A stretch of 64,000 nucleotides of DNA from an uncultured delta proteobacterium (GCA_963826125.1 CAWGVV010000002.1:873964-937963); one strand, 5' to 3'; counted from the stretch's first letter, positions 5,498-40,382 are shown. The notes: generated by a model from the letters alone, not told the origin. Numbers and translations: made by a program.

Positions 5498-5513
5498 GGG
5501 TAAAAACTCCTCT

Positions 5514-6038
5514 TCAGGCTTTCTTGAACAGCAGGGCCGCCGCCCGGATCATACGCGACACGGCCGCCACTCCCACCAGAGCCATGCTGACGGGAATCAC
5601 GGATTTTATGATCCAGCGGTAGGGGAGCCCCAGCGGGGAATCCGAACTTTCGTTCAGATGGTAGGAACTCTGTACGAAATCCAGACCGTGGATGAAAAGG
5701 ACGACGACAAGCGGCAGGAGCAGAAAAAGGATTCCCAGGAATTCGACCCATTCCTTCCCTCGGGGCGAAAACTTCCGGTGGGCCAGATCCAGCCGGATGT
5801 GGGAATCCGTCACGATTCCGTACGATATGCCGAACATCACGCACACGGCGTACAGGTGCCATTGGAGTTCTTCCAGGGACACCATGCCTTTTCCGAATAC
5901 ATAGCGCAAAATCACCTGGATCACGATGACGAGGACCGTGGCCACGTTCAGCCAGGCGATGGTCTGACCGATGCGGAGCACGAACCGGTCGAGGGACACA
6001 CAGACGGCGGGGGGTGCTTTGGGTTCCATAGTATTCAA
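5514..6038 (-). CDS. TRAP transporter small permease (DctQ family)
   Basis: 174 aa, four hydrophobic helices, position between DctP and DctM genes. Confidence 0.8.
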   Translation of the reverse strand: MNTMEPKAPPAVCVSLDRFVLRIGQTIAWLNVATVLVIVIQVILRYVFGKGMVSLEELQWHLYAVCVMFGISYGIVTDSHIRLDLAHRKFSPRGKEWVEFLGILFLLLPLVVVLFIHGLDFVQSSYHLNESSDSPLGLPYRWIIKSVIPVSMALVGVAAVSRMIRAAALLFKKA

Positions 6039-6132
6039 TCGTTTCGGATGCTGTTGGTTTTATCACACGGCGGGATAAAGTGGCGGGACCCGAATGGGTC
6101 CCGCCGTCTTTCGTATCTGGCCGTACGTTTCG

Positions 6133-7209: not shown

Positions 7210-7331
7210 AACAAAACTCCTTCTTATACGGGGAAATTGTGCGGACCCTACACCATCCGCTCGCTATCGGAAAAAAGCTCCTCAGGCCGAAAAAACAACC
7301 GATCGATCGGAGTGCTCGAAGGTAAACGCTG

Positions 7332-8624: not shown

Positions 8625-8715
8625 GTTCGTTCTCCATCTTGGACCGAAACGGTCGATTTATCTCTCGGAAGGGAAAAAGGCCGCTTCGAGCCCGCCGATT
8701 CCCTCCGGCGCTTCT

Positions 8716-10239
8716 TCACATCACCGGACCCAGGTGCCACGGTACGAATTCGTTGTCGCCGAATCCCAGCAGTTCGCTCTTGGTCTTTTTCCCGGAAGCG
8801 GTGTCCACGATGAGGCGGAACACCTCTTCCCCCAGCGCTTCCAGGCCGGTGTCGCCGTCCAGGACCGCTCCGCAGTTCACGTCCATGTCCCGGCTCATGC
8901 GCCGGTAGGTGGCGGTGTTGGAACAGAGCTTAATGGTCGGGACCGGTTTGAAACCGCAGACGCTCCCCCTGCCGGTGGTGAATACGGCTACGTTGGCGCC
9001 TCCTGCTATCATTCCGGTTACCGATACCACATCATACCCCGGAGTGTCCATGAAGATCAGCCCTTTGGCGGTGACGGGTTCCGCATACCGGTACACTTCC
9101 ACCAGGTCGGTGGTGCCCCCCTTGGCCGCCGCTCCCAGCGATTTTTCCAGGATGGTGGTGAGCCCTCCCGCTTTGTTGCCCGGCGAGGGGTTATTGTTGA
9201 TTTCCGCTCCGTGGAGGCGGGTATATTCCTCCCACCAGCGGATGCGCTCGATGAGCTTTTCGGCCGTTCGGGGAGACGCGGCCCGTCGGGTGAGGAGGTG
9301 TTCCGCGCCGTAGATTTCCGGCGTTTCGGCCAGGATCGACGTCCCGCCGCTCCGAACCACCCAATCGGCGGCCGCCCCCAGGACCGGGTTGGCGGTGATG
9401 CCCGAATAGCCGTCGGACCCCCCGCACTCGAGGGCCACCACCAGTTCGCCCGCCGGCACCGGGGTCCGGTGCGCTTCGTCGGCACGGGGGAGCATCTCCC
9501 GAACGATTTCCACGCCCAGCCGGACGGTTTCCTCGGTACCCCCTTCGTCCTGGATGTTGAGCATGCGCAACGTTTCGCTTTCCTTGAGGTTCATGTTGCA
9601 CGACAGACATTCCAGGTGGTTTCCCTCGCACCCAAGCCCCACCAGGATGACGGCGGCGAAATTGGGGTGGCGTATCCAGCCGGCCAGGGTGCGCTGCAGC
9701 AGGTCGAACCCTTCCCCCGCCATGGCGCACCCGGCTCCGTGTTTGATCGCCACCACGCCGTCGATGTTGGGATAGCGGGAAAGCTCCTCGGAGGTGAAAC
9801 GGTCGGCGATGAACTGCACCACGCTGGCGGAGCAGCTCACCGTGGCGATCACTCCGATGAAGTTGCGGGTACCCGTTCGGCCGTCGGGCCGGACGAACCC
9901 CTGAAAGGTCGGCACGTCCTTCAGCGGAAGATATTCCGTGGGGCGCGCGTCGCGGCCGATGCCGTAGTCGCGGGCGAAGTCGTGCAGGACGACGTTGTGC
10001 ACGTGCACGTGGTCGCCCGGTTCGATGGGCCGGGAGGCGAACCCGATGGTCTGGCCGTATTTCACCACGGGATCGCCCAGCGGGATCCGTTTGACTGCCA
10101 CTTTGTGCCCTGCCGGAACGGCCGACCGGCAGGTGATGTTTTCAGCGGTAACGGCCGTTCCGGACGGGATTTCGGCGATGGCCACGGCCACGTTGTCGGT
10201 GGGGTGGAGCCGAATGACGAGAGGATGGATTTCATTCAT
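8716..10239 (-). CDS. UxaA/GarD-family dehydratase (altronate / galactarate dehydratase-like) with N-terminal SAF domain
   Basis: N-terminal SAF-like region (LHPTDNVAVAIAEIPSGTAV), then UxaA-family core; 508 aa from the ATG at MNEIHP. Confidence 0.8.
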   Translation of the reverse strand: MNEIHPLVIRLHPTDNVAVAIAEIPSGTAVTAENITCRSAVPAGHKVAVKRIPLGDPVVKYGQTIGFASRPIEPGDHVHVHNVVLHDFARDYGIGRDARPTEYLPLKDVPTFQGFVRPDGRTGTRNFIGVIATVSCSASVVQFIADRFTSEELSRYPNIDGVVAIKHGAGCAMAGEGFDLLQRTLAGWIRHPNFAAVILVGLGCEGNHLECLSCNMNLKESETLRMLNIQDEGGTEETVRLGVEIVREMLPRADEAHRTPVPAGELVVALECGGSDGYSGITANPVLGAAADWVVRSGGTSILAETPEIYGAEHLLTRRAASPRTAEKLIERIRWWEEYTRLHGAEINNNPSPGNKAGGLTTILEKSLGAAAKGGTTDLVEVYRYAEPVTAKGLIFMDTPGYDVVSVTGMIAGGANVAVFTTGRGSVCGFKPVPTIKLCSNTATYRRMSRDMDVNCGAVLDGDTGLEALGEEVFRLIVDTASGKKTKSELLGFGDNEFVPWHLGPVM

Positions 10240-10303
10240 GGAGTACACCCGTGTTTGAAAGTTTCCGCAACACGGTCTTTCCGCTCCATGGGGCGGTGTT
10301 TCC

Positions 10304-11788
10304 TCAGACCCAACGGGCGGTGACCGTCTTTTCGTCCATGAACAACCGCATGGACGCCAGACGCGATTTGGCGGTTCCCATGAAGGAATCCCGCCGCGAA
10401 CCGAGGGGGAAGAACGCGTACGGCTGGGCCACTCCCACGTTTACCCCGACGTTGCCGACATTCACTTCCCGCGTGAACCTGCGGGCGTTCTTCATGTTGC
10501 CGGTCATGATGCAGGCCGAGTGGCCCAAATTCGTTTTGGTATTGATCCACTCGATAGCCTGTTCCAGGCTGTCCCCCCGAATGAGCGCCGCCGTCGCGCC
10601 GAAGGCCTCTTCCTTGGCCATCGGCATGTCCACGGTGACGTTCTCGAGAATCGTGGGAGCCATGAAATGTCCGTGCGGGTAATCATCCGGCATGGCGGAC
10701 CTGCCGTCAAGGACCATTGTGGCGCCGTCCCGGAGCGACTTCTCGATCCACAGCAGGACTTTTTCCTTCCCGTCTTCCGTGGTGTACGGTCCCATTTCCG
10801 TTTTTTCGTCGAGGCCGTAGCCGAGGCGCATGGATTTCGCCGCGGCCGTCAGCTTGGCTTTCATCTCGTCGTAAATGTTTCCTATCACGACGACGTTGTC
10901 AACGCCCAGGCATCTCTGGCCGGTCATGCCGAAGCAGGCCCGCTGCAGCCAGGGGATGCAGGCGTCGATGTCCGCATCCGGCATGATGACCACGTGGTTC
11001 TTGCCGTTGCCGTTGATCGAGGAGGTTTTTCCCAGCTTCCCGCAGGTTTCGAAAAGCTCGTGCCCGGCGCGGTTGGAACCGATGAATCCCACCCCCTTGA
11101 TTTCCGGTTGTTCCAGAATGGTCTTGTTGATTTTCCGGCCACCATGCACCAGGTTCAGCACTCCGGGAGGGAACCCGACTTCCTGGGCGACGCGCATGAT
11201 CGCGTCGGCCGCGATGGGGTCCTGCCGGCTCGGACTCACGACCACGGTGCACCCGGCGGCCAGGGCATAGGGGACGAAGGAAGACCACGCGTGCATGGGG
11301 ACGTTGCCGGGGGTGACAATCAGGAAGGCTCCCAGCGGTTCCCACATCAGGTATTCGTCGATGCCGTTGGCCAGCTGATCCTGATACTCGTTTTGTTTCA
11401 CCAGCCCGTAGGCGGCGGAGCAGGCGGATTCGATGTTTTCGATCACCCGGCTGACCGAACCTCTGGATTCGCCGATGGTCCTTCCGTGGTCCTGGGTGAG
11501 AATACGGCAGAGGTGCTCATGGTTGTCTTCAAACGCGTGGTGCAGTTTGAACAGGAGTCTGGCCCGTTCCCGCAGGGGAAAATCCTTCCATGACTGAAAC
11601 GCCCGGTGGGCGCTGTGAACTGCTGCCAGCGCCTCATCCGTCGTGGCCTGGGGAAACTCCGCGATCGGTTGGCCGGTGGCGGGATTCGTGCTGACCTCGA
11701 CGTCGGTGGATGCGGAATCCACCCACGCTCCATCGACGAGAAATTGCAGCTTTCCATAATGTGCTCGTACTTCCGACAAAACGGCCAT
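10304..11788 (-). CDS. aldehyde dehydrogenase, methylmalonate-semialdehyde dehydrogenase (CoA-acylating)-like
   Basis: ALDH fold with catalytic Cys region FGMTGQRCLGVDNVVV and the MMSDH-type C-terminal signature GNVGVNVGVAQPYAFFPLGSRRDSFMG. Confidence 0.8.
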   Translation of the reverse strand: MAVLSEVRAHYGKLQFLVDGAWVDSASTDVEVSTNPATGQPIAEFPQATTDEALAAVHSAHRAFQSWKDFPLRERARLLFKLHHAFEDNHEHLCRILTQDHGRTIGESRGSVSRVIENIESACSAAYGLVKQNEYQDQLANGIDEYLMWEPLGAFLIVTPGNVPMHAWSSFVPYALAAGCTVVVSPSRQDPIAADAIMRVAQEVGFPPGVLNLVHGGRKINKTILEQPEIKGVGFIGSNRAGHELFETCGKLGKTSSINGNGKNHVVIMPDADIDACIPWLQRACFGMTGQRCLGVDNVVVIGNIYDEMKAKLTAAAKSMRLGYGLDEKTEMGPYTTEDGKEKVLLWIEKSLRDGATMVLDGRSAMPDDYPHGHFMAPTILENVTVDMPMAKEEAFGATAALIRGDSLEQAIEWINTKTNLGHSACIMTGNMKNARRFTREVNVGNVGVNVGVAQPYAFFPLGSRRDSFMGTAKSRLASMRLFMDEKTVTARWV

Positions 11789-12133
11789 GGGGTAAATCTC
11801 CTCTCTTTCGGGGGTTGTTGATCCTGCGTAACCGCTCGTCGATTCTTCGACGGGGAAACGACGTTGTTTTCAAAGTGCGGTTTTCCCGCTTCCCTTTCCG
11901 GTGGAACGGACGGGTGTCACCTTCCGCCGGCTGTGCCGTCCATTGGGCGAAACACGATGCTCGACCGAAAGAAGTACCGGTCCTTCCCGAAAAAGACTCT
12001 TCATCCTGCACCTCTACCGGTCCGGAGACGAGCCTTTGGGGGATAGGGGGGAGGTGTTCAATTCGACGCCGCGGAAGCGGCGGCGACGGGAGAAATTCTG
12101 TTGTGGCTTTGCCATAGGGAGCCTGCGGAACAT

Positions 12134-13477
12134 TTACATTTTTGACGGTAGATAGGAAACGAGGCCGGGAAACAGGACGAGGAACATCAGCGCGGCAAAC
12201 AGAATAAAAATAAACGGGATCGTGCCGCTGATGATGGTTTTGATCGGCACGTCCGTTACCGCTTTTATGACGAACAGATTCAACCCCACCGGGGGCGTGA
12301 TCATGCCGATTTCCACCGACAGGGTGGAAACGACGCCGATCCACAGGGGATCGAAGCCAAGGGCGGTAAACGTGGGAAAGAGAAACGGGATTGTCATGAC
12401 GATCATGCTGGTGGGATCGAGGATGCATCCCAGGACGAGCCACAACACCCAGGTCAAAATGAAAAACACCCAGCGGTTGACGCCGAACCCGACGATCAGA
12501 TTGGCCAGTCCGTGTGCGATTCCCAGGAACGTCACGACGTAACTCAACGAGAGTCCGGCGAAAATGAGGAACACGATCATGACGCTGATTCTGGCGCTGC
12601 CCGCGCAGATGTCGAAAAACGTGGAAAGGCGCAGCCTGCCCAATAGGATGATTATCAGGAAGGCGCCCGTAGCCCCCACTCCGGATGCCTCCGTCGCCGT
12701 GGCCATGCCGGTGTACAAGGTACCCAGCACAAGAACGATCAGCACCATCGGCGGAACGATGGTTTTCAGATCGGCCCAAAATTCTCCGGAAGCACTCTTG
12801 CCCGAATCGGCCGTTTCACGAACGGCTCGTTCGGCCGTCCGCTTCGGCGCCTTTTCCACGCCGACGAGGCTAGGATTGAAAGTCGCCCGGAGAACGATGA
12901 AGACACACAACAGGAAGCTTATCAGCAACCCGGGAAGTATTCCGGCGATGAAAAGCTTGGCGATGGACGTTTCCGTGATGATCCCGTACACGACGAACGC
13001 CATGCTGGGCGGTATCATGATGCCGAGCGTGCCGCCGGCGGCGATCACGCCGGTGGAAAAGCCGGGATCGTAGCCCCGGTCCACCATCTCGTTCACCGAT
13101 ATCCGGCCGATCGCCGCCGCGGTAGCCGGACTCGACCCGCATAACGCCGCGAATATGGTGCAGGCCATGGTCGCACTTACGGCGAGTCCGCCCTTCAGCC
13201 GGCTCATCCATTTGCTCAATACCGTGAAGATATCGGTGGCGATACCGCCCTTGGCCAGAATTTCGGCCATCAGAATGAAGAGCGGAGCAATCAGCATCGT
13301 CTGGCTGGTGGCCATGCTGAAGGCAATGGTGCCGATGGGATACAACTGATCGGGTGAAAGAAAGATCACCGTACACAACACCGCCACGAATCCCAAGCCG
13401 AAAGCAACGGGAGTTCCCATTGAAAGAACGATTAACAGGATGAGCACTATGACAAAAACCAGCATTCCGATACCCAT
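12134..13477 (-). CDS. TRAP transporter large permease (DctM family), second system
   Basis: 447-aa polytopic DctM-type protein following DctQ/DctP genes. Confidence 0.9.
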   Translation of the reverse strand: MGIGMLVFVIVLILLIVLSMGTPVAFGLGFVAVLCTVIFLSPDQLYPIGTIAFSMATSQTMLIAPLFILMAEILAKGGIATDIFTVLSKWMSRLKGGLAVSATMACTIFAALCGSSPATAAAIGRISVNEMVDRGYDPGFSTGVIAAGGTLGIMIPPSMAFVVYGIITETSIAKLFIAGILPGLLISFLLCVFIVLRATFNPSLVGVEKAPKRTAERAVRETADSGKSASGEFWADLKTIVPPMVLIVLVLGTLYTGMATATEASGVGATGAFLIIILLGRLRLSTFFDICAGSARISVMIVFLIFAGLSLSYVVTFLGIAHGLANLIVGFGVNRWVFFILTWVLWLVLGCILDPTSMIVMTIPFLFPTFTALGFDPLWIGVVSTLSVEIGMITPPVGLNLFVIKAVTDVPIKTIISGTIPFIFILFAALMFLVLFPGLVSYLPSKM

Positions 13478-13498
13478 AATGGAATCTCCCCAAGCCGA

Positions 13499-14002
13499 TC
13501 ACAGATATTCTTCACCTTTTTGCAGCAGATCACGTATGATGAACACTACGATTGCGGTCATCAGAACGCATCCCACAAGCATACCGGCGTAGAGATAAAC
13601 GACGGGTATCTGAATAACCGCCAGCGTCAGCTTGTTGAGGTGCAGGGCGTCCTTGATAAAGGATAAGGTCGTGCCCAGAAGAACGAGAATGTATACCAAG
13701 GAGAACGCGTAGCCCGCGACGGCCAGAAAGCAGCCGTACGACTTTCCGCATTTGCTTGAGATTACGTTTCTGATGAAATCGACCGACACGTGCGTTTTTT
13801 CCTGGATCGCCGAAGCAGTGCCCAGGAAGAAGGCCCAGATGAGCAGGTACGTGGATACGTCCAGGGTCCAGGAAGTCGGGTGGGAGAAAACGTTCCGGGC
13901 GATCGTTTCGAATGCACAGAGAAAGCTGATGAGGAAGATGATGATTCCTCCGATGACCGCCGCCACGTGGTTGACCTTGCGAACGAATGAGAAAGACGTC
14001 AT
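13499..14002 (-). CDS. TRAP transporter small permease (DctQ family)
   Basis: 167 aa, four TM helices, between DctP and DctM. Confidence 0.85.
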   Translation of the reverse strand: MTSFSFVRKVNHVAAVIGGIIIFLISFLCAFETIARNVFSHPTSWTLDVSTYLLIWAFFLGTASAIQEKTHVSVDFIRNVISSKCGKSYGCFLAVAGYAFSLVYILVLLGTTLSFIKDALHLNKLTLAVIQIPVVYLYAGMLVGCVLMTAIVVFIIRDLLQKGEEYL

Positions 14003-14073
14003 GTTGCGCTTCCTTCCTCATAAAGGCGAAGCGGCCGGTGGAAGAGAACGTTCGCACCGGCCACTCCCCGGAA

Positions 14074-15096
14074 TCACTTCACCGCTCTGAGCGCCTCCAT
14101 CAATGCAACGCCTTCAGGGCCGGCAATGGGCGTGATCTTTTCCCACAACGGTTCCCTCACCTTCCTGAACTGTTCGTTCTGTTCCTTTGTCAGGTGATAC
14201 AGTTTGCAACCCGAGTCCTGTACCGCCTTTTCAAACTGCTGCTCCATCTCCGACGCGTTCTGTATGTTGAAGTTCATCCACTTCTTGACTGACCGTTGCA
14301 CCGCTTCCTGCTGGCTCGCATTCAGGCTTTTCCATGCCTTGTCGCTCATCATCATGCCCCGGAACATCTCCGGGATTTCGGTGACCGTGACGAAGGGAGC
14401 CGATTCATACAGCTTCAGGGCTCCGGCCAGCTGCCAGCCGATGTACCCGACGTCCAGGGTGCCCCTGCCGAGGGCGGTGGGAAGATCGCGCAAGGGGACC
14501 GTAATGGGGCTTCCTCCCCACATCATGATCGCTTCCCCGCCCCATTTGCCAGGGGTACGCACGGTGGCGCCCTTGAAATCCTCGGGGCAGGTAACGAGTT
14601 TTCCGAACCGTTTTATCCCCAGAAAGGTCATGGTGCCCGCATCGTCCAGGCCGAGGTATTTGATGCCGTATTTTGCGAAAATTTTTTCAACGACGGGACG
14701 GGTGACTTTATCCACTTCCAGGTAGTGATTTCCGGGATAAGCGCCGGGTACTTCAAAGGGGGTTAATTCCTTCATGGTGGGACTGAGATAGGCTACGAAA
14801 AAGTGCCCGATATCGACGGTACCCCGTGTGACGGCCTCAAGGATGTCGTGGTCCGAAATGAGCGATCCGGCGGGAAAGGTTTCCACCTTCACCTGCCCTT
14901 GGGTTTCCTCACTCACCGTTTTGGCGAAAAACTCGTATCCTCGTCCCTGTATCCCGGTTGCCGGCGGTGCGTAGCTGAATTTCAGAACCAGAGGTTTTTG
15001 CGCCATGCCTGTCGATGCGCATACCAGCAGAATGAATGAAAAGCACATCAGTACCGTTATGAATCCTCGCGCCCGCTTTTTGCCCTCGATGCCCAT
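14074..15096 (-). CDS. TRAP transporter substrate-binding protein (DctP family), secreted
   Basis: N-terminal hydrophobic signal (FITVLMCFSFILLVCASTGMA) then DctP-type binding protein; first gene of the P-Q-M triplet. Confidence 0.85.
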   Translation of the reverse strand: MGIEGKKRARGFITVLMCFSFILLVCASTGMAQKPLVLKFSYAPPATGIQGRGYEFFAKTVSEETQGQVKVETFPAGSLISDHDILEAVTRGTVDIGHFFVAYLSPTMKELTPFEVPGAYPGNHYLEVDKVTRPVVEKIFAKYGIKYLGLDDAGTMTFLGIKRFGKLVTCPEDFKGATVRTPGKWGGEAIMMWGGSPITVPLRDLPTALGRGTLDVGYIGWQLAGALKLYESAPFVTVTEIPEMFRGMMMSDKAWKSLNASQQEAVQRSVKKWMNFNIQNASEMEQQFEKAVQDSGCKLYHLTKEQNEQFRKVREPLWEKITPIAGPEGVALMEALRAVK

Positions 15097-18277: not shown

Positions 18278-18982
18278 CTATTTTTCCTTGGAACCGTTCG
18301 CCAGCCGAACCGATGCACTATCCGCTTTCTCTCGCGAATTGCGGAGGTTCACCATGAATCTGTTCATGGATTCGAGAATATGGCGTTCGAAATGTTCCTT
18401 TATGTTGTTTTTGTCTCGTTCCACCAGGGCATCCACCAGGACGTCATGTTCCGTAATGATGTCCGAAACCTTCTTTCTGGAGCCGGCGTTCGTTGCGGCG
18501 AGCATGCGGGTGTGCGCGGAAATGGTTTTCCAACTGAGGTGAAGTCTCTGGTGATCGGCGAGCACGAAAATTTCTTCGTGGAATTGCATGTGCAGTTCGA
18601 AGGTGTCCGCAACGTCGGCGCTGTCGTTCATTCCATGGATAATGCTTCTCAACCTGTCGACGTCGTACGGTTGAAGAATATCCGACGCCAGAGCCGCCGC
18701 ATGGCATTCCAGGAGAGCCCGCAAGGTATAGATTTCCTCAATGTCCTTTTCGGTGAAGCTCTTTACGTAGGTTCCCCGCCTCGGATAGGTGACGGTCAGA
18801 CCTTCTCGTTCCAGTTCCACGAGGGCTTCCCTTACCGGGGCGCGGCTTATCCCAAGCGATTGGGCTATTTCGGATTCGAGAACTCTTTCGTCGGGCTTGA
18901 GTTCACCGGAAAGAATTTGGTGCCTCAGAACCCGCACCACCTGTTTTGAAAGGTTCGCGCTGTCGAGCTTCAGCAGTTTCAT
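18278..18982 (-). CDS. GntR/FadR-family transcriptional regulator (wHTH + FCD domain)
   Basis: wHTH region LKPDERVLESEIAQSLGISRAPVREALVELEREGL then FCD-type helical domain; ATG at MKLLKL with GGAGG upstream preferred over the TTG track start. Confidence 0.75.
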   Translation of the reverse strand: MKLLKLDSANLSKQVVRVLRHQILSGELKPDERVLESEIAQSLGISRAPVREALVELEREGLTVTYPRRGTYVKSFTEKDIEEIYTLRALLECHAAALASDILQPYDVDRLRSIIHGMNDSADVADTFELHMQFHEEIFVLADHQRLHLSWKTISAHTRMLAATNAGSRKKVSDIITEHDVLVDALVERDKNNIKEHFERHILESMNRFMVNLRNSREKADSASVRLANGSKEK

Positions 18983-19348
18983 CTGAAGACGGAGGCCTCC
19001 TGTTGTGGTTATTTCGTCGAATGTCGACAATCGACAAATAGCCGCCCGAACCTGTTCGTGTCAAGAAAAATCGGGAAACATTCCCCATAAATCGGAGCAA
19101 GTGAAAATTTGCGCAAGCATGCGGAACGAAATCCGCCCATTCCCGGACGTTCGTCCCTCATTCAGGGTGAGGAATCATGACGTCCTGCAAACGCCCGCGG
19201 AGATCGGGGATGCGAAGGGGGACGCGCCGTTTCTTGCCACGGGTCTCTTTTGCCGGAATGACGAAACGGAGGCGCGAGGAGGATGCTCCGACCCCCTCCG
19301 GGGGGCACGGTGGATTACGCGCGACAGCCGGGCGTCCTGACGGCAACC

Positions 19349-19390
19349 AAAAAAACAGTCGTGGGGAACCGATTGCCCGTTCCCCACGAC
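19349..19390 (-). terminator. rho-independent terminator downstream of the TauE gene (12-bp stem GTCGTGGGGAAC/GTTCCCCACGAC, then UGUUUUUUU on the minus strand)
   Basis: read directly from sequence. Confidence 0.7.
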
Positions 19391-19445
19391 CGTCGTGGTT
19401 TCACCTTTTTGTTTTTCCGATCGCGGAAGGCGATCTGCCGCCGTG

Positions 19446-20525
19446 TTACTCCGCCTGGAACGCCTCCTGTCCTCCGGACTGGAGTTGGGCCTCCAGTCGC
19501 CTGCCCACCACCATGCCCTTGAGGATAATATATGCGCCGAGGATCAGGGCGAAGGCCATCAGGCCGAAACTCACCTTGTTCAGGATATTCGCCGTCCCCT
19601 CGCCCAGGGTGAAGAACTGGAGCTTGCTCAGGTACACGGGGATGGCGATGCCTCTGCTCACGGCCACGATGAGCATGATGGTGGCCATGACGAATTTGAT
19701 GACGTAACCCTTCACGTAGGTGGTGCCGATGGCTCCGAGCTGTACGCCGAAGAGGGAGCCGGCCAGAATGATCAGGGTGAGCCGGATGTCCACCATTCCG
19801 TACCAGGCCCAGATGAGCGTGCCGCCCATGCCCATGACGAAGGCGACGACCAGTTCGCTGGCCGAGGCCATGAGGCTGGAAAGTCCGAGGAGATAGATCA
19901 TGCCGGGCACGCCGATGAAGCCGCCCACGGCGATGGTGGCCGCCAGCATGCCGGTAGCCAGTCCCAGGGGAATGGTGAACCACAGGGAGATGCGGATGCC
20001 GCTGCGCTTGAAGGTGATCATGGGCCACAGTTCGATCGATTGCAGCCACTTGGCCAGCTTGGTGACCTTCTCCTCACCGCCCGACTTCTTCAGGTTCAAG
20101 GCGTCCCGGAGAATGAAGTAGCCCACGATGCTCAACACGGCCACGAAGGCGAGGCTGACGTACAGGTTGGACCCCGCCTGTCCCCATTTCTGCAAGATCC
20201 AGCGCTGAAACTGAATCCCGATCTGCACGCCGATTTCCGCCGAAGCACCGATGATGACACCGAGCTTGATATCAACTTGTCCGTAGCGGAACCGCTTGAT
20301 GGCTCCCACCAGGGCCTTGGGGAACTTGTGGCACATGTTGCTGGCCACGGCCACCGTGCCGGGGACACCGAGGCTCATCATACCGGGGGTGAGCACGAAT
20401 GCGCCGCCCGACCCGATGAAACCGCTCACCAAACCACCGACAAAGCCCACGAAAAGAAGGAAGATAAAATTCGCCGCGTTGAGATCGATGAAGCGTACGG
20501 CTTCCGTAATCGCGCTATGATCCAT
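19446..20525 (-). CDS. TauE/SafE (TSUP) family sulfite/anion exporter-type permease
   Basis: 359-aa polytopic membrane protein with the duplicated TSUP glycine-rich helices (GGLVSGFIGSGGAFVLTPGMM … IAVGGFIGVPGMIYLLG). Confidence 0.8.
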   Translation of the reverse strand: MDHSAITEAVRFIDLNAANFIFLLFVGFVGGLVSGFIGSGGAFVLTPGMMSLGVPGTVAVASNMCHKFPKALVGAIKRFRYGQVDIKLGVIIGASAEIGVQIGIQFQRWILQKWGQAGSNLYVSLAFVAVLSIVGYFILRDALNLKKSGGEEKVTKLAKWLQSIELWPMITFKRSGIRISLWFTIPLGLATGMLAATIAVGGFIGVPGMIYLLGLSSLMASASELVVAFVMGMGGTLIWAWYGMVDIRLTLIILAGSLFGVQLGAIGTTYVKGYVIKFVMATIMLIVAVSRGIAIPVYLSKLQFFTLGEGTANILNKVSFGLMAFALILGAYIILKGMVVGRRLEAQLQSGGQEAFQAE

Positions 20526-21664: not shown

Positions 21665-21953
21665 CGGGCTATTTCGTTGTTAAGCTATTGAAAATAATAT
21701 TATATTTTCTCTACTCATGCCGATTCGCCATTGCCGGCTGTTGCATTTTTCAACACCGGCCGTGCCGTGGCGGGCGGGGAAAAGGAAGAAAAGCCCCATT
21801 CCTCCCGACAAAATGGTCGTTGCAGATGGCAACAGAGGCCATGTTGCAAAAAGCAACGCATTGACAGAAGGAGAAAAGACGTGGAAAATTCAAATGCTTC
21901 GCGGTCCGGACAAGAAAAAGGAAAACGCCGCGGGCGGAGAGGGGGACAGGCGC

Positions 21954-23963
21954 ATGTTCTTCAAGAAAACGTCCGAGACCGGCACCGAGAAGGAAGAGGA
22001 GAGCCAGGAAATACAGGACCTCCGTAAGTCGGTGGAACAGGCGCGCATGCCCGACCGGGTGAAGACGATCGCCGGGAAGGAACTGGAGCGGTTGGCCAAG
22101 ACCGACCCCTCCCTGGCCGAGTACGGCATAGGACTGAACTACCTGGAATTCATCCTCTCCCTGCCCTGGGAGAAGTCGTCCAAGGACAACCTGGACTTGT
22201 CCCGCGCCGAACGGATCCTCGACGAGGAACACTACGCGCTGGCTCCGGTCAAGGAGCGGGTGCTCGAATACCTGGCGTCCAACATAAAGATCGGGTTGAA
22301 ACCCACCCGCATGATGGTGGTCGACGACGAAAAGATCGCCCTGGAGAACGTGGCCTACGCCCTACGCAAGGAAGGCCATGAGGTGCATACGGCGGAAAAC
22401 GGCCAGGAGGCACTGGACATTCTCCGGCAGTTCGATTTCGACCTGGTGGTGACCGACCTCAAAATGCGGAACGTGGACGGTATGCAGCTGCTGGAGCGGG
22501 TCAAGGCGGAATCGCCCGAGACGGAACTCATTCTGGTCACCGGGTACGCCACCGTGGACACCGCCGTCGACGCTCTAAAGAAAGGCGCGGCCCAGTATCT
22601 GCCCAAACCGTTGAACCTGGATACCCTGCGGCAGTCGGTGAACGAGATCCTCGAACAGCGGCGGAAGGTTCACGTATCCCAGGGGCCAGTGCTCTGCTTT
22701 GCCGGACCTCCGGGCACGGGCAAAACGTCCATCGGCCGATCCATCGCCAAGGCCCTGGAACGGAGTTTCATCCGCGTGTCGGTGGCGGGACTCCGGGACG
22801 AAGCGGAAATGCGGGGACACCGCCGCACCTACGTGGGGGCCATGCCGGGAAGGATTCTTTCCGAAGTCCGGCGCATAGGGGTAAACAATCCGGTGTTCAT
22901 GCTGGACGAACTGGACAAAATCGGTCAGGACTTCCGGGGAGACCCCGCGTCGGTCCTACTCGAGGTGCTGGACCCCGAACAGAACAAACGCTTCCTGGAC
23001 CATTACGTGGACATTCCCTTCGATCTGTCCCGCGTGATGTTCATCACCACGGCCAATGCCATCGAACGGCTGTCCCGACCTCTTCTGGACCGGATGGAGG
23101 TCATCCACTTTTCCAGCTACACCTTGCGGGAAAAGTCGTCCATCGCTTCGCATTATCTGGTTCCGCGCCAGCTCAAGGCCAACGGGTTGTCTCCCCGTGA
23201 GGTGGAGTTTTCAAGGGAGGCGCTGGACAAGATCATCGGCGACTACACGGACGAAGCGGGCCTCCGGAACCTGGAGCGGGAAGTGGGGAGTGTCTGCCGC
23301 AAGGTGAACCGCCTCCTGTTGCAGGACCGCCTCAGCCTTCCGAAAAAGGTGGAAGCGGCCGACGTGGAAGCGCTCCTGGGACCGCCGCGGTTTTCCCGGC
23401 TGTCCGCTTCCGATGCACGCGTTGCGGGCGTCACCACGGGGCTGGTATGGACGGAACACGGCGGCCACGTCATTTATGTTGAAACGGCCCGGATGAAGGG
23501 CCAGGGAAAGCTCATCATGACCGGTTCCCTGGGGGAGGTGTTGAAAGAGTCCGCCCAGACCGCCCTCAGCCACATTCGCAGCAACGCAGCCGAATTCGGC
23601 ATCGATCCCGAATTTTTCGAAACGAGCGACGTCCACGTCCACATTCCGGCCGGCTCGATCCCCAAGGACGGTCCCTCCGCGGGGGTCACCATCGCCATGG
23701 CCCTGGTTTCGTTGCTCACCGGCAAGCCGGTGCGCAAGGGGGTCGCCATGTCCGGGGAGCTCACCCTGAGCGGCCGGGTGCTGCCCGTGAGCGGCTTGAG
23801 GGAAAAACTGCTGGCGGCGCAGCGTGCGGGTATCTCCACGGTGATCCTGCCCGCGGCCAACGCCACGGAGATCGCCGCTTTGGAACCCGACGTGCGTACC
23901 GCAACGAACATTGTCCAGGTGGAAAACTTCCGGGGAGCGGTACAAAACGCTTTGTCGGAATAG
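21954..23963 (+). CDS. lon: ATP-dependent Lon protease lacking the Lon N-domain, with a response-regulator receiver (REC) domain inserted between the conserved pre-AAA helix and the Walker A motif
   Basis: …PVKERVLEYLA | REC (MMVVDDEKIA … DLVVTDLKMRNVDG … LVTGYAT … KKGAAQYLPKP) | GPVLCFAGPPGTGKTS … MLDELDK … Lon_C with KDGPSAG Ser and downstream Lys; start at ATG MFFKK (GGGGGA RBS), alternative ATG at 21894. Confidence 0.8.
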   Translation: MFFKKTSETGTEKEEESQEIQDLRKSVEQARMPDRVKTIAGKELERLAKTDPSLAEYGIGLNYLEFILSLPWEKSSKDNLDLSRAERILDEEHYALAPVKERVLEYLASNIKIGLKPTRMMVVDDEKIALENVAYALRKEGHEVHTAENGQEALDILRQFDFDLVVTDLKMRNVDGMQLLERVKAESPETELILVTGYATVDTAVDALKKGAAQYLPKPLNLDTLRQSVNEILEQRRKVHVSQGPVLCFAGPPGTGKTSIGRSIAKALERSFIRVSVAGLRDEAEMRGHRRTYVGAMPGRILSEVRRIGVNNPVFMLDELDKIGQDFRGDPASVLLEVLDPEQNKRFLDHYVDIPFDLSRVMFITTANAIERLSRPLLDRMEVIHFSSYTLREKSSIASHYLVPRQLKANGLSPREVEFSREALDKIIGDYTDEAGLRNLEREVGSVCRKVNRLLLQDRLSLPKKVEAADVEALLGPPRFSRLSASDARVAGVTTGLVWTEHGGHVIYVETARMKGQGKLIMTGSLGEVLKESAQTALSHIRSNAAEFGIDPEFFETSDVHVHIPAGSIPKDGPSAGVTIAMALVSLLTGKPVRKGVAMSGELTLSGRVLPVSGLREKLLAAQRAGISTVILPAANATEIAALEPDVRTATNIVQVENFRGAVQNALSE

Positions 23964-35507: not shown

Positions 35508-35545
35508 GCAGAGTGGGGCCGAAAGGCCCCACTCTGCTTTTTGCT
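35508..35545 (+). terminator. rho-independent terminator (13-bp stem GCAGAGTGGGGCC/GGCCCCACTCTGC, GAAA loop, then TTTTTGCTTTC)
   Basis: read directly; 34 nt after the PEP-CTERM stop. Confidence 0.85.
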
Positions 35546-35630
35546 TTCGTCGAAACAAACTCAAGTGAACGGGTACGGCAGCCGATATAGGCAAAAACGG
35601 ACCGCTCGCCGCGGTGATGGAGAACTATTT

Positions 35631-36863
35631 GTGAAGGGCGATGAAGCAATACAAGTCTGCCACATCGTGAAACGATTCGGCGACCAATCCATACTCGAAG
35701 ATGTCACGTTCTCTGTCCGCAGAGGCAGCATCACTTCCCTTATCGGGAAAAGCGGCTCGGGCAAGAGTCTGATCCTCAAACACATCATCTCCCTGCTGAA
35801 GCCGGATTCCGGAACTGTGCTGGTCAACGGAGTGGACGTCGCCAGTGCGAGTCGAAAGACGTTGTCGGAACTCCGATCGCAAATCGGATTTCTCTTCCAG
35901 GGGAGCGCTCTTTTCGACGGAATGACGGTGTTCGAAAACATCGCGCTTCCTCTGCGCGAACGGAAAAATGCCGACGAGGAAGAGATCGCCCGGCGAGTCC
36001 GAGAGCAGGCGCGGCAGCTGGGAGTGGAGAAATCGCTGGACCTCCATCCGCCGGAACTGAGCGGCGGCATGAAAAAGCGGGTGGGATTGGCCAGGGCTCT
36101 CGTTACCGGGCCCGACATCGTGTTGTTCGACGAACCCACCACCGGCCTCGATCCCCTGCGGAGGAACGACGTCCACAGCCTTATCGCGGAGAGCCACCGG
36201 CTTTTCGGCTTCACCGCCCTTGTCGTGAGCCACGACATCCCGGAAGTGTTCGACATCTCCGACTCCGTGGTCATGATCGATCAGGGGCGGGTGGCGATGT
36301 CGGGTTCCCCTTTGGATTTCCTGAGGAGCCCCCTTCCCGTGGTGTCGAATTTTCTGGAGGGCACCAGGGGTGACCGGGACACATCAGCCGGTCTCATGGT
36401 CCGGTCGGAATTCGAGAAAAGGCTTCGTGAGGAGTACGCCCGCGCAATCCGGTACGGGAAACGGTTCTGTCTGGTCACTCTGGGTATGGGCGCTCATGAC
36501 GGGGAGGTTCATTCCAGGGACCAAGGGGCCGTGGATGCCGCCGCGATGGCGGGGATGCTGAAGGAATGCACTCGATCGAGCGATCTGCTGGCTCGCTACG
36601 ACGAAGAAAGCTTCATCCTTCTCCTTCCGCATACCTCCCTGGAGGGCGCGGACATTATGGGGCGCAGGCTGCGCTCCGTGCTCGGCAGCGGCCTCAAGCA
36701 TCCGGACGGGACCGGTCCGGAGATTTTTTTCGGGATGAGCGAATTCGACGGCGAGAAAAGCTGGGAAGACATGGTTCGCCAATCGTTCTCGGACATGACG
36801 AATCCGCCGCACGTCTTCGCTTCCGTCACGGAATCGAAGAGGATGCCCCTCCGGCCGATGTGA
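35631..36863 (+). CDS. ABC-transporter-type ATPase (MlaF/MetN-like) fused to a C-terminal degenerate GGDEF domain (YDEESF in place of GGEEF)
   Basis: Walker A GKSGSGKS, signature LSGGMKKRVGLARAL, Walker B IVLFDEPT; C-terminal region aligns to GGDEF fold (…RYGKRFCLVTLGMG…DLLARYDEESFILLLPHTSLEGA…); GTG start with GGAG RBS chosen because the upstream TTG lies inside the terminator. Confidence 0.75.
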   Translation: MKGDEAIQVCHIVKRFGDQSILEDVTFSVRRGSITSLIGKSGSGKSLILKHIISLLKPDSGTVLVNGVDVASASRKTLSELRSQIGFLFQGSALFDGMTVFENIALPLRERKNADEEEIARRVREQARQLGVEKSLDLHPPELSGGMKKRVGLARALVTGPDIVLFDEPTTGLDPLRRNDVHSLIAESHRLFGFTALVVSHDIPEVFDISDSVVMIDQGRVAMSGSPLDFLRSPLPVVSNFLEGTRGDRDTSAGLMVRSEFEKRLREEYARAIRYGKRFCLVTLGMGAHDGEVHSRDQGAVDAAAMAGMLKECTRSSDLLARYDEESFILLLPHTSLEGADIMGRRLRSVLGSGLKHPDGTGPEIFFGMSEFDGEKSWEDMVRQSFSDMTNPPHVFASVTESKRMPLRPM

Positions 36864-36940
36864 CGAGGGAGCAGCCGGCGCTCGCATGGTTCATCACGGT
36901 TCCGGGAGAATCCCGGAATTCCCGCCAATACGAATCCCGA

Positions 36941-36978
36941 AATAAAAAAAGCGCCGCCGCAAACCATGCGGCGACGCC
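36941..36978 (-). terminator. rho-independent terminator for hdrA (stem GGCGUCGCCGCA/UGCGGCGGCGC then U7 on the minus strand)
   Basis: read directly; sits between the convergent ABC-GGDEF and hdrA genes. Confidence 0.75.
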
Positions 36979-37000
36979 TTGAAAAGCACGTTCTTTGGTT

Positions 37001-38536
37001 TCAGGCCACGCGTTTTTCCCGCGTTGCGATAACCACTTCGGCCGCCCGCGCTGCGGCGCTCGAAGCCTGCGCCACCGACTCCGGAATGTCCATGGGGGCT
37101 TGGGCGCATCCGCACACGAAGATTCCTTCCCGGCTCGTGTTCAGCGGGTCCACCGAACTGGTCCGGATGAAACGGTACTCATCGAGTTCCACATCGAGGA
37201 CCTCGGCGAGTTTTTCGATTCCGGCGGGGGGCACGCAGGCGGTGGCCAGCACCACCATGTCGACCTCCATGGATTTCACCTGCCGCTCGCGGGTATCTTC
37301 GTACCAGACGAGAGGATTATGGTTTTCGCCCTCGGTAATTTCGGCCACCCGGCCCCGGATGTAGGTAATGCCGCTGTCGCGGCCGCCGCGCACCTTGTAC
37401 TCCTCAAATCCCTTGCCCACGGCGCGGATGTCCATGCCGAAGACGAAGGATTGCGTGCGATGCTCGTGCTCGCGGGCGATGATGGCTTCCTTGACCGAAT
37501 GCATGCAGCAGTAGCCGGAGCAGAAAGAATTGAAGCGAAAGTCGCGGCTGCCCACGCACTGGATGAACGCCAGCCGAGTGGCCACGTCGAAGTGAGCCGC
37601 CACCGCTTCCAGTTCATGGAGCCGTTTCTCCGAAGCCGTGTGTTCCCGTGAAGCGTTGAGCAATTCCTGCTCGTCCGGCGAAAGGCCGCCCTCCCCGCCC
37701 TCGGCCTTCTTCTCCAGGTCCGCGGCCGGTACTTGAGCCTTCTTTTCCAGCCGCTCGACATTCTTGGTCGATTTGGAAACCTTTTTCTTGAGTTCCTCGA
37801 TTTCCACCTCGGCCTTCATGTCCGAAGGCCGGTCCAGGTGTCCGCCCGTGGGACCGCTGGCGCTCAGCAGCCGCTCGAATTCCATGGCGGTGACCACGTT
37901 GTCGATTCTTCCGTAGCCGTACTCGGGAATAATGGAGGGATCGAACACGTCGTAGCCCGTGGAGACGACGATGGCGCCCACCTCAAGGGTGACGATGGTG
38001 TCGGTCTGTTCGAAATCAACCGCCCCGGCCTGGCAGACCTTGGCGCACACGCCGCACTTTTTCCCCTGGCCCAGTTGGCGGCAGTGTTCGGCATCGATGG
38101 TGAAGACGGAAGGGATTCCCTGAGCGAAGTACTTGTAAATGGCCTTGCGCTCTCCAAATCCTTCGTTGTAGGCATCCACGACCGACGTAGGGCACTTTTC
38201 GGCGCACGATCCGCATCCCGTGCAGCGGCTGTCGTTTACGTAGCGTGCCTTTCTGCGTACGGTGACCGTGAAGTTCCCGGCGCTGCCCTCGATCTTCTCC
38301 ACCTCGCTGTAGGCCATCAACTCAATGTTGGGATGCCGACCGGCATCCAGCAGCTTCGGCGAGAGAATTCAGATGGCGCAGTCGTTGGTGGGGAAGGTCT
38401 TGTCCAGTTGAGCCATCTTCCCGCCGATGCTGGGAAGCTTCTCCACCAGTTTCACCTTGAGTCCCATTTCCGCCAGATCCAGAGAACTCTGAATGCCGGC
38501 GATGCCTCCGCCTATTACCAGAACATCCTGACTCAC
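37001..38536 (-). CDS. hdrA: heterodisulfide reductase subunit A (HdrA), selenocysteine-containing: in-frame UGA at 38369..38371
   Basis: N-terminus [16 protein letters not shown] (FAD fold), then [33 protein letters not shown] continuous through the UGA at the position where Sec-type HdrA carries selenocysteine; GTG start with GGAGG RBS; the track splits the gene at the UGA. Confidence 0.85.
38331..38348 (-). promoter_or_regulatory. SECIS-like hairpin GGAUGCC-GGUC-GGCAUCC starting 20 nt 3' of the hdrA UGA
   Basis: perfect 7-bp stem with GGUC apical loop, like the E. coli fdhF SECIS apical loop. Confidence 0.6.
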
Positions 38537-38539
38537 GTC

Positions 38540-39661
38540 TTATGCCTCCAAAAGATTTTCCGCCAAAAGGTCCGTCAGTTCCTTCACCTCGATACCGAGA
38601 TCGAAGGACTTGTTGGAACAGCTGAAATGAATGGCGCACTTGGGGCAGGCCGTGACGATGGTTTCCGCTCCCGTGCTCTTTGCTTCCTCCAGCCGTTCCA
38701 CCTGGATGGACTTCGAACAGCTCGTGCAATTCATCCAGGCCGAGGTGCCGCAGCACACGCCGTTTTCCCGGTTGCGTTCCATTTCCACCAGTTCCACGCC
38801 GGGAATTTTGCGGATCAGCTCCCTCGGCTGCTCATAGATGTGGCTCATGCGGCCCAACCGGCATGGATCGTGATAGGTGACCTTCTTCCGGGCCGGCTTC
38901 AGCTTCAGTTCTCCGTCGGCGCTGGAAAGCAAATCGTTGATTTGTACGATTTCCACTCCCAGGTCCCCCACATAGCGTGGGTAGTATTCCCTGAACGTGT
39001 GGTAGCCCTCCGGACAGCTGAAGACCACCCGTTTGACTCCCGATTTCCGGATCGTGTCCGCGTTGCGCTGCGCGAGTTTCTTGAACGTCTCTTCGTCGCC
39101 GTTCCACAGGGCATCGTGCCCGCAGCACCGTTCGTCCGGGCTGACCAGCGGTTCTATCCCCATGGCATTGAGGAGCTTTACCACGTTGCGCGCACCATTG
39201 ACGGCCCCGGCCTCGATGTCCCGGAACACGATGTCGAAATAGGGACGGCAGCCCACGAAGTACATCGTGTCGCCGGCGGGATTGACCCGAACGGACCCGT
39301 CGATCCAACCGATTCGGTTCTGCCTTTGATCGCTGCAGTGCAGGGCCATGATGGACTGCATGATGCCGTGATGGGCGGGCGTGCCGGTGATCCCCCGCAG
39401 CGTGGCTTCGTCGCGGATAAGGCGGATGAACTCGGGAAAGTTGATGTTGGCCGGGCATCGTTCGAAACACCGGGAGCAGGTGAGGCAGCTCCAGATGGTT
39501 TCGTCGGAGATGTCTTCCAGATCGTAGAGGCTGCGCTCCACGATGAGTCGGGGGGAGAAATCGGGAAATACCCTGCTCACCGGACAGCTGCCGGTGCATA
39601 CGCCGCAATCCAGACAATAATACGTCTGGGTCTGTTCGATCAGTCGTTCGATGACGCTCAT
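38540..39661 (-). CDS. heterodisulfide-reductase-related Fe-S protein (HdrD-like / fused HdrC-HdrB type): 2x[4Fe-4S] plus two CCG cysteine-rich domains
   Basis: CLDCGVCTGSCP and CLTCSRCFERCP ferredoxin motifs; CCG-type motifs (CCGHD…, PCRLGR…, CCGTS…); ATG at MSVIERL is 1 nt after the mvhD stop. Confidence 0.8.
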   Translation of the reverse strand: MSVIERLIEQTQTYYCLDCGVCTGSCPVSRVFPDFSPRLIVERSLYDLEDISDETIWSCLTCSRCFERCPANINFPEFIRLIRDEATLRGITGTPAHHGIMQSIMALHCSDQRQNRIGWIDGSVRVNPAGDTMYFVGCRPYFDIVFRDIEAGAVNGARNVVKLLNAMGIEPLVSPDERCCGHDALWNGDEETFKKLAQRNADTIRKSGVKRVVFSCPEGYHTFREYYPRYVGDLGVEIVQINDLLSSADGELKLKPARKKVTYHDPCRLGRMSHIYEQPRELIRKIPGVELVEMERNRENGVCCGTSAWMNCTSCSKSIQVERLEEAKSTGAETIVTACPKCAIHFSCSNKSFDLGIEVKELTDLLAENLLEA

Positions 39662-39662
39662 A

Positions 39663-40127
39663 TCAAGCCGCCTTGGCATGGGACGGCCCGAGGGAGCGCA
39701 CCTGATCGGTGAACTGGCGAGCCGTTTCGGCAAATTTAGGACCTTCCGCGGAGGAGATCCATTCCAGTTTCACCCGGCCTTCTTCGATTCCCAGCACGCT
39801 CAACAGGTCTTTGACCTGTTCCATGGTGGCCTTGCACTTAACATTACCATCCAGGTAATGACAGTCGCCGATGTGTCAGCCGGCCACCAGCACGCCGTCC
39901 GCCCCCTTGGCGAACGAACGCAGGATGAAGTTGGGGTTGATCCGCCCTGTGCACATGACCCGGATGATCCGCATGGAGGCGGGATACTGCAGCCGGCTCA
40001 CGCCCGCCAGATCCGCGCCGGCGTATGCACACCAGTTGCAGCAGAACGCCAGGATTTTGGGAGCAAATTCATCAGACATATTCAATTCCGTATATGAGGA
40101 ATGGTTCGTTTCGCCGCGAGTCGTCAT
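39663..40127 (-). CDS. mvhD: methyl-viologen-reducing hydrogenase delta-subunit-like protein (MvhD), selenocysteine-containing: in-frame UGA at 39876..39878
   Basis: …[18 protein letters not shown]…MCTGRINP…[20 protein letters not shown]… = the GCHxGDCHY motif with the first Cys replaced by UGA; ORF continues 70 codons to TGA at 39663..39665; start ATG at 40127 or 40079. Confidence 0.75.
39842..39860 (-). promoter_or_regulatory. SECIS-like hairpin CAUUACC-UGGAU-GGUAAUG starting 15 nt 3' of the mvhD UGA
   Basis: perfect 7-bp stem read directly. Confidence 0.5.
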
Positions 40128-40382
40128 CCTCGACAAGAGTTAGACCGAAGATATCATTCACAGGTTGAGTTTTCTGTTTTTTTTATGAACAGAATAAGCG
40201 CAGAGAGTACACTATACGGAGGCGGGGGGAATCTGTCAAGCAAGGTTTAATTAAGTGATATCGCGTGTTTTATCGGTAAGTATTCCACTCCGACGCCGGA
40301 TGTTTCGCCACGGTTCACGATTGATTTACCGTTCTTGCAGGGGCAAATGGCCGTTTGTCCCATCGTTAAGCAGCATACGACG

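Follow-up and report, generated by a model that had tools for sequence, protein, structure and literature searches.

The UGA at codon 56 (38371..38369) of a gene encoding a 511-residue HdrA-type FAD/Fe-S protein in an uncultured delta proteobacterium is very probably translated as selenocysteine (Sec), a reading that draws on the DNA sequence and on its comparison with related genomes. The gene resides on the minus strand of a 64,000-nucleotide stretch of DNA (GCA_963826125.1 CAWGVV010000002.1:873964-937963), the whole of which was analyzed and is hereafter called the window. It is the last member of a three-gene operon, mvhD(Sec68)–hdrD-like–hdrA(Sec56), whose features are listed in Table 1.

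Table 1. Features of the three-gene operon, in window coordinates.
Feature	Position	Strand	Details
Sigma-70-like promoter, TTGACA-17-TATAGT	40211..40239	minus	11 of 12 consensus positions match; assigned by consensus match only
MvhD/FlpD-like gene, first of the operon, with U68	39663..40079	minus	138 codons; ATG at 40079, TGA at 39665..39663
In-frame UGA of the MvhD-like gene (predicted Sec68), GVLVAG-U-HIGDCHY	39876..39878	minus	Sequence
SECIS-like hairpin of the MvhD-like gene, CAUUACC-UGGAU-GGUAAUG	39842..39860	minus	Loop 22 nt past the UGA
HdrD/GlpC-like Fe-S protein, 373 amino acids	38540..39661	minus	4Fe-4S dicluster domain and two CCG domains
HdrA-like flavoprotein gene	37001..38536	minus	511 sense codons, including the UGA, plus stop
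In-frame UGA of the HdrA-like gene (predicted Sec56), second residue of the C-A-I-U (CxxU) pair with Cys53	38369..38371	minus	Alignment and orthologues
Bacterial SECIS-like hairpin of the HdrA-like gene, GGAUGCC-GGUC-GGCAUCC	38331..38348	minus	Sequence, RNAalifold and orthologue conservation
Intrinsic terminator, 14-bp stem and T run	36948..36980	minus	Ends the operon

A preliminary description of this DNA had traced an HdrA reading frame from a minus-strand GTG at 38536 through the TGA and into the open reading frame at 37001..38320, and every coordinate proved to be correct. The frame begins with the GTG at 38536..38534, passes through the TGA at codon 56, and terminates at another TGA (37003..37001). 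A GGAGG ribosome-binding site is located 8 nt 5′ of the GTG, and 63 of the 73 orthologues described below carry a start codon at the same position (50 GTG, 13 ATG). The same description had predicted that naive annotation would report a truncated gene, and this is indeed what the databases hold. The mechanical list of open reading frames divides the gene into two pieces, 38369..38536 (55 amino acids) and 37001..38320 (439 amino acids, beginning with a TTG). The database entry for the same gene (P0001) is a protein of 438 amino acids that begins at M73, and the best 120 database relatives, which are 433 to 453 amino acids in length, begin after the UGA in every case (120/120) and lack the FAD-binding N terminus.

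We regard this consequence for annotation as the main value of the finding, in that the stored proteins have lost both the fold that binds FAD and the catalytic Cys/Sec pair. Gene callers shorten the Sec-HdrA family systematically, and the mvhD gene of the same operon is split in like manner. Those metabolic reconstructions of Desulfobacterota that are built on such gene calls will therefore under-count intact HdrA/MvhD electron-bifurcation modules as well as selenium dependence. A scan of the window for other split genes, defined by a TGA flanked by long open frames, was swamped by some 100 spurious candidates owing to the GC content of 59%, and the UGA of the mvhD-like gene instead came to light when the DNA 5′ of hdrA was read directly.

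Protein comparisons were run with Cys in place of the UGA. The product matches 5ODC_A, which is the HdrA protein of Methanothermococcus thermolithotrophicus in the HdrABC-MvhAGD structure, with E = 2.3e-126. Four additional HdrA chains of known structure give E values between 1e-104 and 1e-118. An alignment to HdrA had been proposed in advance as a check on the frame downstream of the UGA, and that frame does align, as do both halves of the protein that flank the UGA. Residues 1–240 correspond to residues 142–375 of 5ODC_A and residues 320–500 to residues 379–563, with the match as a whole covering residues 142–573 of 654. An insert of about 80 charged residues occupies positions 241–319. Because the alignment block is ungapped around the UGA, residue 56 equates to residue 197 of 5ODC_A, which is the second Cys of FPTNDC-S-I-C, and the motif there is nearly identical in the two proteins. 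This position is Sec197 in Methanococcus maripaludis, and thus the earlier proposal that the UGA occupies the Sec position of Sec-type HdrA proteins holds. In the 2026 cryo-EM study of M. maripaludis Hdr-Vhu-Fwd, HdrA Sec197 is paired with a cysteine, the map density fits a selenylsulfide with the flavin on one side and an Fe-S cluster on the other, and the role of Sec in HdrA is posed as an open question (PMC13518236).

Searches with Pfam placed an FAD/NAD Rossmann fold (Pyr_redox_2, FAD) at the extreme N terminus, 5′ of the UGA, and a 2×[4Fe-4S] ferredoxin insert (Fer4) at residues 99–172, downstream of the UGA. Since the Rossmann fold precedes the UGA and the ferredoxin insert follows it, a single domain architecture spans this codon. 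The FAD Rossmann motif, the Cys cluster motif of the thioredoxin reductase domain (CVGSRD...C...CC), and the 2×[4Fe-4S] insert that characterize the HdrA family are all present. Note that the highest score obtained with NCBIfam, 506 bits, compares to a cut-off of 1100 for the HdrA equivalog. Because the protein falls far under the NCBIfam HdrA cut-offs, we call it HdrA-like rather than CoB-CoM heterodisulfide reductase.

A perfect hairpin with the sequence GGAUGCC-GGUC-GGCAUCC had been reported 20 nt 3′ of the UGA at 38331..38348, and its presence there was confirmed in the sequence. The stem begins 20 nt and the loop 27 nt after the UGA (38368..38342). The likeness of its GGUC loop to that of the E. 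coli fdhF element was borne out when the K-12 sequence was checked. The fdhF element reads UGA-CACGGCCCAUCGGUUGCA-GGUC-UGCACC, and it likewise forms a GGUC-loop hairpin within the coding sequence 3′ of the UGA. The two elements differ in that the fdhF loop lies 18 nt after the UGA and its stem carries a bulged U, whereas the window element has its loop at 27 nt and a perfect 7-bp stem with no bulge. A consensus model for bacterial SECIS elements, quoted in a 2026 review on the selenoproteomes of prokaryotes, calls for a loop of 3 to 9 nt, an upper stem of 4 to 16 bp, a UGA-to-loop distance of 16 to 37 nt, a G in one or both of the first two loop positions, with G/U as the usual next base, and a minimum free energy (MFE) of −7.5 kcal/mol or lower (PMC13188914). 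The window hairpin falls within these bounds with its 4-nt loop, perfect 7-bp stem, 27-nt spacing, and GGUC sequence, which is invariant in 73 of 73 orthologues, and the centroid of the hairpin by itself has an energy of −12.3 kcal/mol.

Note that the single-sequence fold is not exceptional when compared with dinucleotide shuffles (z = −0.13). Because the hairpin thus performs no better than shuffled sequence, single-sequence thermodynamics was dropped as evidence either way. A perfect hairpin of at least 7 bp in SECIS geometry follows 12 of the 1845 TGA triplets in the window (0.65%), and two of these 12 are the in-frame UGAs of the hdrA-like and mvhD-like genes. The geometry rules are loose, such that the genuine stop TGA at 37003 together with the terminator also passes them. 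No SECIS family of Rfam was detected by a gathering-score scan of the whole window or by a permissive scan of positions 36900..40300. The only matches were to one tRNA-Gln and weak ones over the terminator, the latter solely to sRNAs that bear terminators. We consider the Rfam result uninformative because bacterial SECIS elements are evidently not captured by it.

By analogy with the established bacterial pathway, the mRNA hairpin (38348..38331) would act as a bacterial SECIS element, a role that its conserved structure and the frozen synonymous sites described below support indirectly. The GGUC at its apex, located 27 nt beyond the UGA, would recruit SelB·GTP·Sec-tRNA(Sec) to a ribosome paused at this codon, Sec would be inserted in place of termination, and translation would go on to the stop codon at 37003..37001. 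In the resulting protein, Cys53 and Sec56 are predicted to form a redox-active thiol/selenol pair beside the flavin of the thioredoxin-reductase-like domain, equivalent to the Cys194/Sec197 pair that forms the selenylsulfide in the M. maripaludis HdrA structure.

Comparative evidence was gathered by a single scan of species-representative genomes, which yielded 80 loci that are nearly all from metagenome-assembled genomes of Desulfobacterota; the isolates Desulfoferrobacter suflitae and Desulfospira joergensenii are also represented. The relatives recovered in this way are at most 69% identical over full-length matches. Within the 80 loci, the codon at the Sec position is TGA in 102 HdrA-like genes and TGY (TGT or TGC) in 21. 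An orthologue alignment was built from the window sequence and 72 further distinct orthologues (n = 73), and RNAalifold returned the 7-bp hairpin as its sole consensus structure, with 99.8% of the hairpin cells in the alignment paired. One pair varies, being U:A in 54 sequences, U:G in 15, and C:G in 4, and never C-A. In the C:G form, which is that of the window itself, GCC stands in place of GTC (Ala for Val), and this is accompanied by a synonymous change of CGA to CGG.

Because this covariation is thin, consisting of one pair and possibly of a single event, we place more weight on constraint at synonymous sites. The hairpin codons CTG, GAT, GTC, GGT, and CAT have a synonymous entropy of 0 across the 73 genomes, and the Ile, Leu, Pro, and Ala codons that flank the hairpin have synonymous entropies of 1.5 to 2.0 bits. 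Pairwise diversity at third positions is 0.10 in the hairpin, 0.41 just upstream of it, and 0.52 in the N-terminal 55 codons. Across these 55 codons 5′ of the UGA, pairwise differences at codon positions 1, 2, and 3 are 0.157, 0.066, and 0.517, respectively, and the segment is evidently under purifying selection. The locus offers a clean illustration of an RNA structure that imposes synonymous-site constraint within a coding region.

Cys-type homologues, which were found in Asgard archaea, in Clostridia, and as a Syntrophales paralogue, have no hairpin at the corresponding place, and their mean MFE is −5.2 kcal/mol versus −11.1 kcal/mol for the Sec orthologues. The occurrence of the hairpin in Sec-type genes and its absence from Cys-type genes reads as the classic Sec/Cys signature. 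Many of the loci also contain a separate Sec-type paralogue, in which another hairpin (CUGGUCG-AGGU-CGGCCGG) is found equally far from the UGA. Judged from these alignments, the comparative signal lies far beyond chance.

The first gene of the operon encodes a protein that matches the Pfam family FlpD (PF02662) over its full length (positions 1–123 of 123, E = 2.6e-55) and NCBIfam VhuD at 1.6e-39. This gene is also split by the track of open reading frames, and its in-frame UGA is located at the known Cys/Sec site of the family, in the motif G-(C/U)-H-x-G-x-C-H-Y. A Sec-type MvhD gene with the same TGA is present 5′ of the Sec-HdrA gene in 62 of the 73 orthologous loci, and in 41 of those 62 an HdrD-like gene lies between the two, as in the window. 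The stem of the MvhD-like hairpin is kept in 56 of the 62 loci, with loops that vary among UGGAU, UGGAC, UGGAA, UGGGA, and UGGUA. Since the operon thus contains another in-frame UGA that is followed by a hairpin, the Sec reading of the HdrA-like gene gains support. The middle gene encodes a Cys-type protein without an internal UGA that matches Pfam CCG (2.1e-31) and Fer4_8, as well as TfrB, LdhH, GlpC, and HdrC of NCBIfam. Its start is likelier the ATG at 39661 than the TTG at 39733 because this ATG overlaps the mvhD stop codon (TGATATG). The operon most likely encodes an HdrA-type module that is soluble and performs flavin-based electron bifurcation or confurcation, and whose subunits are presumed to form a complex.

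Several other explanations for the UGA were weighed. The codon might be a genuine stop, in which case the locus would be either a pseudogene or a pair of genes for a 55-residue peptide and a 438- or 439-residue protein restarted at TTG 38320 or ATG 38317. Gene callers give exactly such a model in the 438-residue database entry, and TGA is the usual stop codon here. However, the shortened product would have lost the GxGxxG fold that binds FAD as well as the CxxC/U redox pair. Neither 38320 nor 38317 is preceded by a Shine-Dalgarno sequence, in contrast to the GTG at 38536 with its GGAGG. Moreover, purifying selection across the 73 genomes acts both on the 55 codons 5′ of the UGA and on the 16 that separate it from the annotated start, and a pseudogene would not retain an invariant TGA and a covarying hairpin across orders of Desulfobacterota. 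We therefore judge a genuine stop to be very improbable. A sequencing or assembly error that turned TGC or TGT into TGA requires only that a single base be wrong, yet the identical TGA is present in an assembly of a separate read set (Logan ERR11523651, L001), and the TGA is invariant in 73 of 73 orthologues, which come from unrelated projects. This leaves an error with next to no probability.

It is similarly hard to credit that the UGA is read through with an amino acid other than Sec, either as Cys carried by tRNA-Sec or as Trp or Cys by near-cognate suppression, with the hairpin serving only as a stimulator of read-through. In keeping with that idea, the Sec machinery is not seen in the 64-kb window: NCBIfam scans of about 40 open reading frames found no selA, selB, or selD, and a search of the window with ARAGORN found no tRNA-Sec but only tRNA-Gln. 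It is also the case that homologues function with Cys at the Sec site. Nevertheless, if Cys were intended, TGY would be simpler, and the Cys lineages do use TGY. The hairpin fits the SECIS model for SelB-type recognition, including the G-G/U apical loop that it has in common with fdhF. In addition, the HdrA family is known to contain Sec from the structure of the M. maripaludis protein (PMC13518236), and Sec-HdrA is known genomically from Deltaproteobacteria that bear selABCD (PMC1794560, PMC2702500), among them D. autotrophicum, which has selA, selB, selC, and selD plus the same Sec-HdrA and Sec-MvhD families (PMC2702500). A global reassignment of UGA can be ruled out, since TGA is the commonest ordinary stop codon in the window and terminates 26 of its 43 genes. 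Insertion of Sec at codon 56 remains by far our preferred reading.

Comparison with the methanogen enzymes reveals both shared and divergent features. The window protein has in common with the M. maripaludis Sec-HdrA and the Cys form in 5ODC a thioredoxin-reductase-like FAD core, a 2×[4Fe-4S] insert, and a Cx11CxxxCC motif, and its Lys349 is by alignment the equivalent of Lys409. As in M. maripaludis HdrA, Sec would occupy the residue-197 position of the CxxU pair, and the partner protein (VhuD in M. maripaludis, MvhD-like in the window) is likewise a selenoprotein, predicted as such in the window. In contrast, methanogen HdrA has an N-terminal Fe-S domain (residues 1–141) and two C-terminal ferredoxin domains that the window protein lacks, and HdrB and HdrC are replaced in the window by one fused HdrD-like protein. 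Whereas hdrB/hdrC and mvhA/mvhG are adjacent in HdrABC-MvhAGD systems, the neighbors in the window are the HdrD-like and MvhD genes only. There are no hydrogenase subunits in the window, and no hydrogenase or formate dehydrogenase genes adjoin the operon. The SECIS element of M. maripaludis is an archaeal one located in the 3′-UTR, unlike the in-frame, bacterial SECIS-like hairpin of the window.

Sec-HdrA is already well known in sulfate-reducing and syntrophic bacteria, HdrA and FrhD/MvhD both being classic families of prokaryotic selenoproteins, and the window locus is one more example that reveals no new principles. Zhang et al. (2006) counted Sec-HdrA genes in bacteria and arrived at 16, of which seven belong to Syntrophobacter fumaroxidans; they also noted glpC-hdrA-frhD clustering in Deltaproteobacteria (PMC1794560). 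Strittmatter et al. (2009) described Sec-type hdrA, hdrL, hdrD, and mvhD in Desulfobacterium autotrophicum HRM2 (PMC2702500). The operons of S. fumaroxidans, Desulfotalea psychrophila, and D. autotrophicum HRM2 belong to the same phylum-level lineage as the window and contain the same two selenoprotein families, and they also share with it the GlpC/HdrD-like clustering and a bacterial SECIS within the coding sequence (PMC1794560, PMC2702500). The published deltaproteobacterial operons usually add mvhG/mvhA (frhG/frhA), flox or hdrL, and sometimes a Sec-type GlpC, whereas the window operon has only three genes and its HdrD-like protein is Cys-type. This minimal three-gene form is not obviously covered by these earlier descriptions, nor is a trimmed HdrA core with a conserved, charged insert.

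The same trio of protein types is present in BamDEF of Geobacter metallireducens, wherein BamD is HdrD-like, BamE is HdrA-like, and BamF is MvhD-like with Sec. The equivalent pair in BamE, Cys59–Cys62, lies beside the bifurcating FAD and is proposed to cycle through a disulfide state (bioRxiv 10.64898/2026.04.10.717634). However, BamE consists of two HdrA units fused into a protein of about 1000 amino acids, whereas the window protein is a single trimmed core. Membership in the BamDEF system, which belongs to class II benzoyl-CoA reductase, was considered and rejected, as neither bamB/bamC (tungsten AOR) nor bamGHI is present in the window, and nothing ties the operon to aromatic metabolism.

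We also entertain, with considerable doubt, the possibility that the trio MvhD(U68)–HdrD-like–HdrA(U56) represents a biochemically uncharacterized subfamily of HdrA-type bifurcating enzymes with a two-Sec selenol relay. Such a subfamily would be distinguished by a minimal HdrA core that is without the N- and C-terminal Fe-S domains and that carries the conserved, charged insert (241–319, about 80 residues). In the relay, one Sec would sit by the [2Fe-2S] cluster of MvhD and the other by the flavin. If this proves true, the operon would provide a simple bacterial system for probing the role of Sec in HdrA. In other genomes, as at locus L025, the trio is found amid further genes, namely those for a fused double HdrA of about 1100 amino acids that has a Sec of its own, another HdrA-like protein, another MvhD, and an NfnB/GltD-like flavoprotein. 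The window trio stands alone, with an alpha/beta-hydrolase gene on one side and an ABC-ATPase/GGDEF gene on the other.

All of the 120 best protein-database homologues of the HdrA-like flavoprotein (433–453 aa), including the NCBI-annotated entries among them, begin directly after the position of the in-frame UGA (e.g. MLDVGRHP…). Therefore, the Sec-HdrA subfamily is systematically stored in an N-terminally truncated form. The operon contains a second selenoprotein gene, encoding an MvhD/FlpD-like protein, which is broken up in the mechanical ORF list of the window. The pairing of Sec-type MvhD with Sec-HdrA is kept in 62 of 73 related loci.

Features of the Sec-type HdrA and MvhD genes (window coordinates unless a related locus is named)
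Feature	Position	Strand	Details
MvhD/FlpD-like second selenoprotein gene, HdrA operon	39663..40079	minus	138 codons
In-frame UGA of MvhD/FlpD-like gene	39878..39876	minus	motif VAG-U-HIGDCHY
Hairpin of MvhD/FlpD-like gene	39842..39860	minus	CAUUACC-UGGAU-GGUAAUG; loop 22 nt 3′ of UGA
Lys/Glu-rich, highly charged HdrA insertion	residues 241–319, approx. 37580..37816	minus	~80 residues
Paralogous Sec-type HdrA, related genomes	L025:1033-4401		similar positions in L007, L009–L011, L017, L019, L022–L032, L040–L044 and others

Note that the SECIS rules are not specific when applied to a single sequence, as is evident from the genuine stop codon of HdrA. The terminator hairpin lies 3′ of this TGA (37003..37001, minus strand), the spacing being 34 nt, and has a G at loop position 2 (36948..37003); thus, the stop and terminator also conform to simple bacterial SECIS geometry.

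In the mechanical ORF list, the HdrD/GlpC-like gene (38540..39733, minus strand) begins with TTG at 39733, which gives it an overlap of approximately 70 nt with the MvhD gene. The ATG at 39661, which overlaps the mvhD stop codon (TGATATG), is the likelier start and gives a product of 373 aa.

The charged insertion in HdrA is absent from the solved methanogen protein (5ODC_A, from Methanothermococcus thermolithotrophicus), in which the insertion point falls between residues 375 and 379. Both its length and its character are kept in the orthologues from loci L025, L042, L035 and L006, and the insertion may serve as a coiled-coil or docking arm.

Many related genomes carry a paralogous Sec-type HdrA 3–5 kb upstream, and none is present within the window. 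This paralogue has the motif CAM-U-II/VI and a SECIS element (CUGGUCG-AGGU-CGGCCGG) that is unlike that of the window HdrA. In L025, two HdrA units are fused into one protein of ~1100 aa that recalls BamE, the fused double HdrA of class II benzoyl-CoA reductase.

Elsewhere in the window, the ORF at 35541..36863 (plus strand) joins an ABC-transporter ATPase domain (residues 52–201) to a C-terminal GGDEF diguanylate-cyclase domain (residues 279–386), which is an uncommon fusion. The Lon protease at 21717..23963 (plus strand) carries an N-terminal response-regulator receiver domain (residues ~198–318) followed by the Lon ATPase/protease region (301–744). A GntR-family regulator gene (18278..19030, minus strand) and the next gene (19446..20525, minus strand) are separated by an intergenic region that contains a perfect 7-bp inverted repeat, GGGGAAC-N9-GTTCCCC (approximately 19370..19392); this repeat may be an operator or terminator. 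Finally, an isomerase of the nickel-pincer-cofactor-dependent type is predicted from the gene at 7332..8624 (minus strand; NCBIfam group 22, E = 1e-135). Around it (neighbours at 4118..15096) are two sets of TRAP transporter genes, a galactarate-dehydratase-like gene and an aldehyde dehydrogenase, a setting that suggests a cluster for the utilisation of acid sugars or organic acids.
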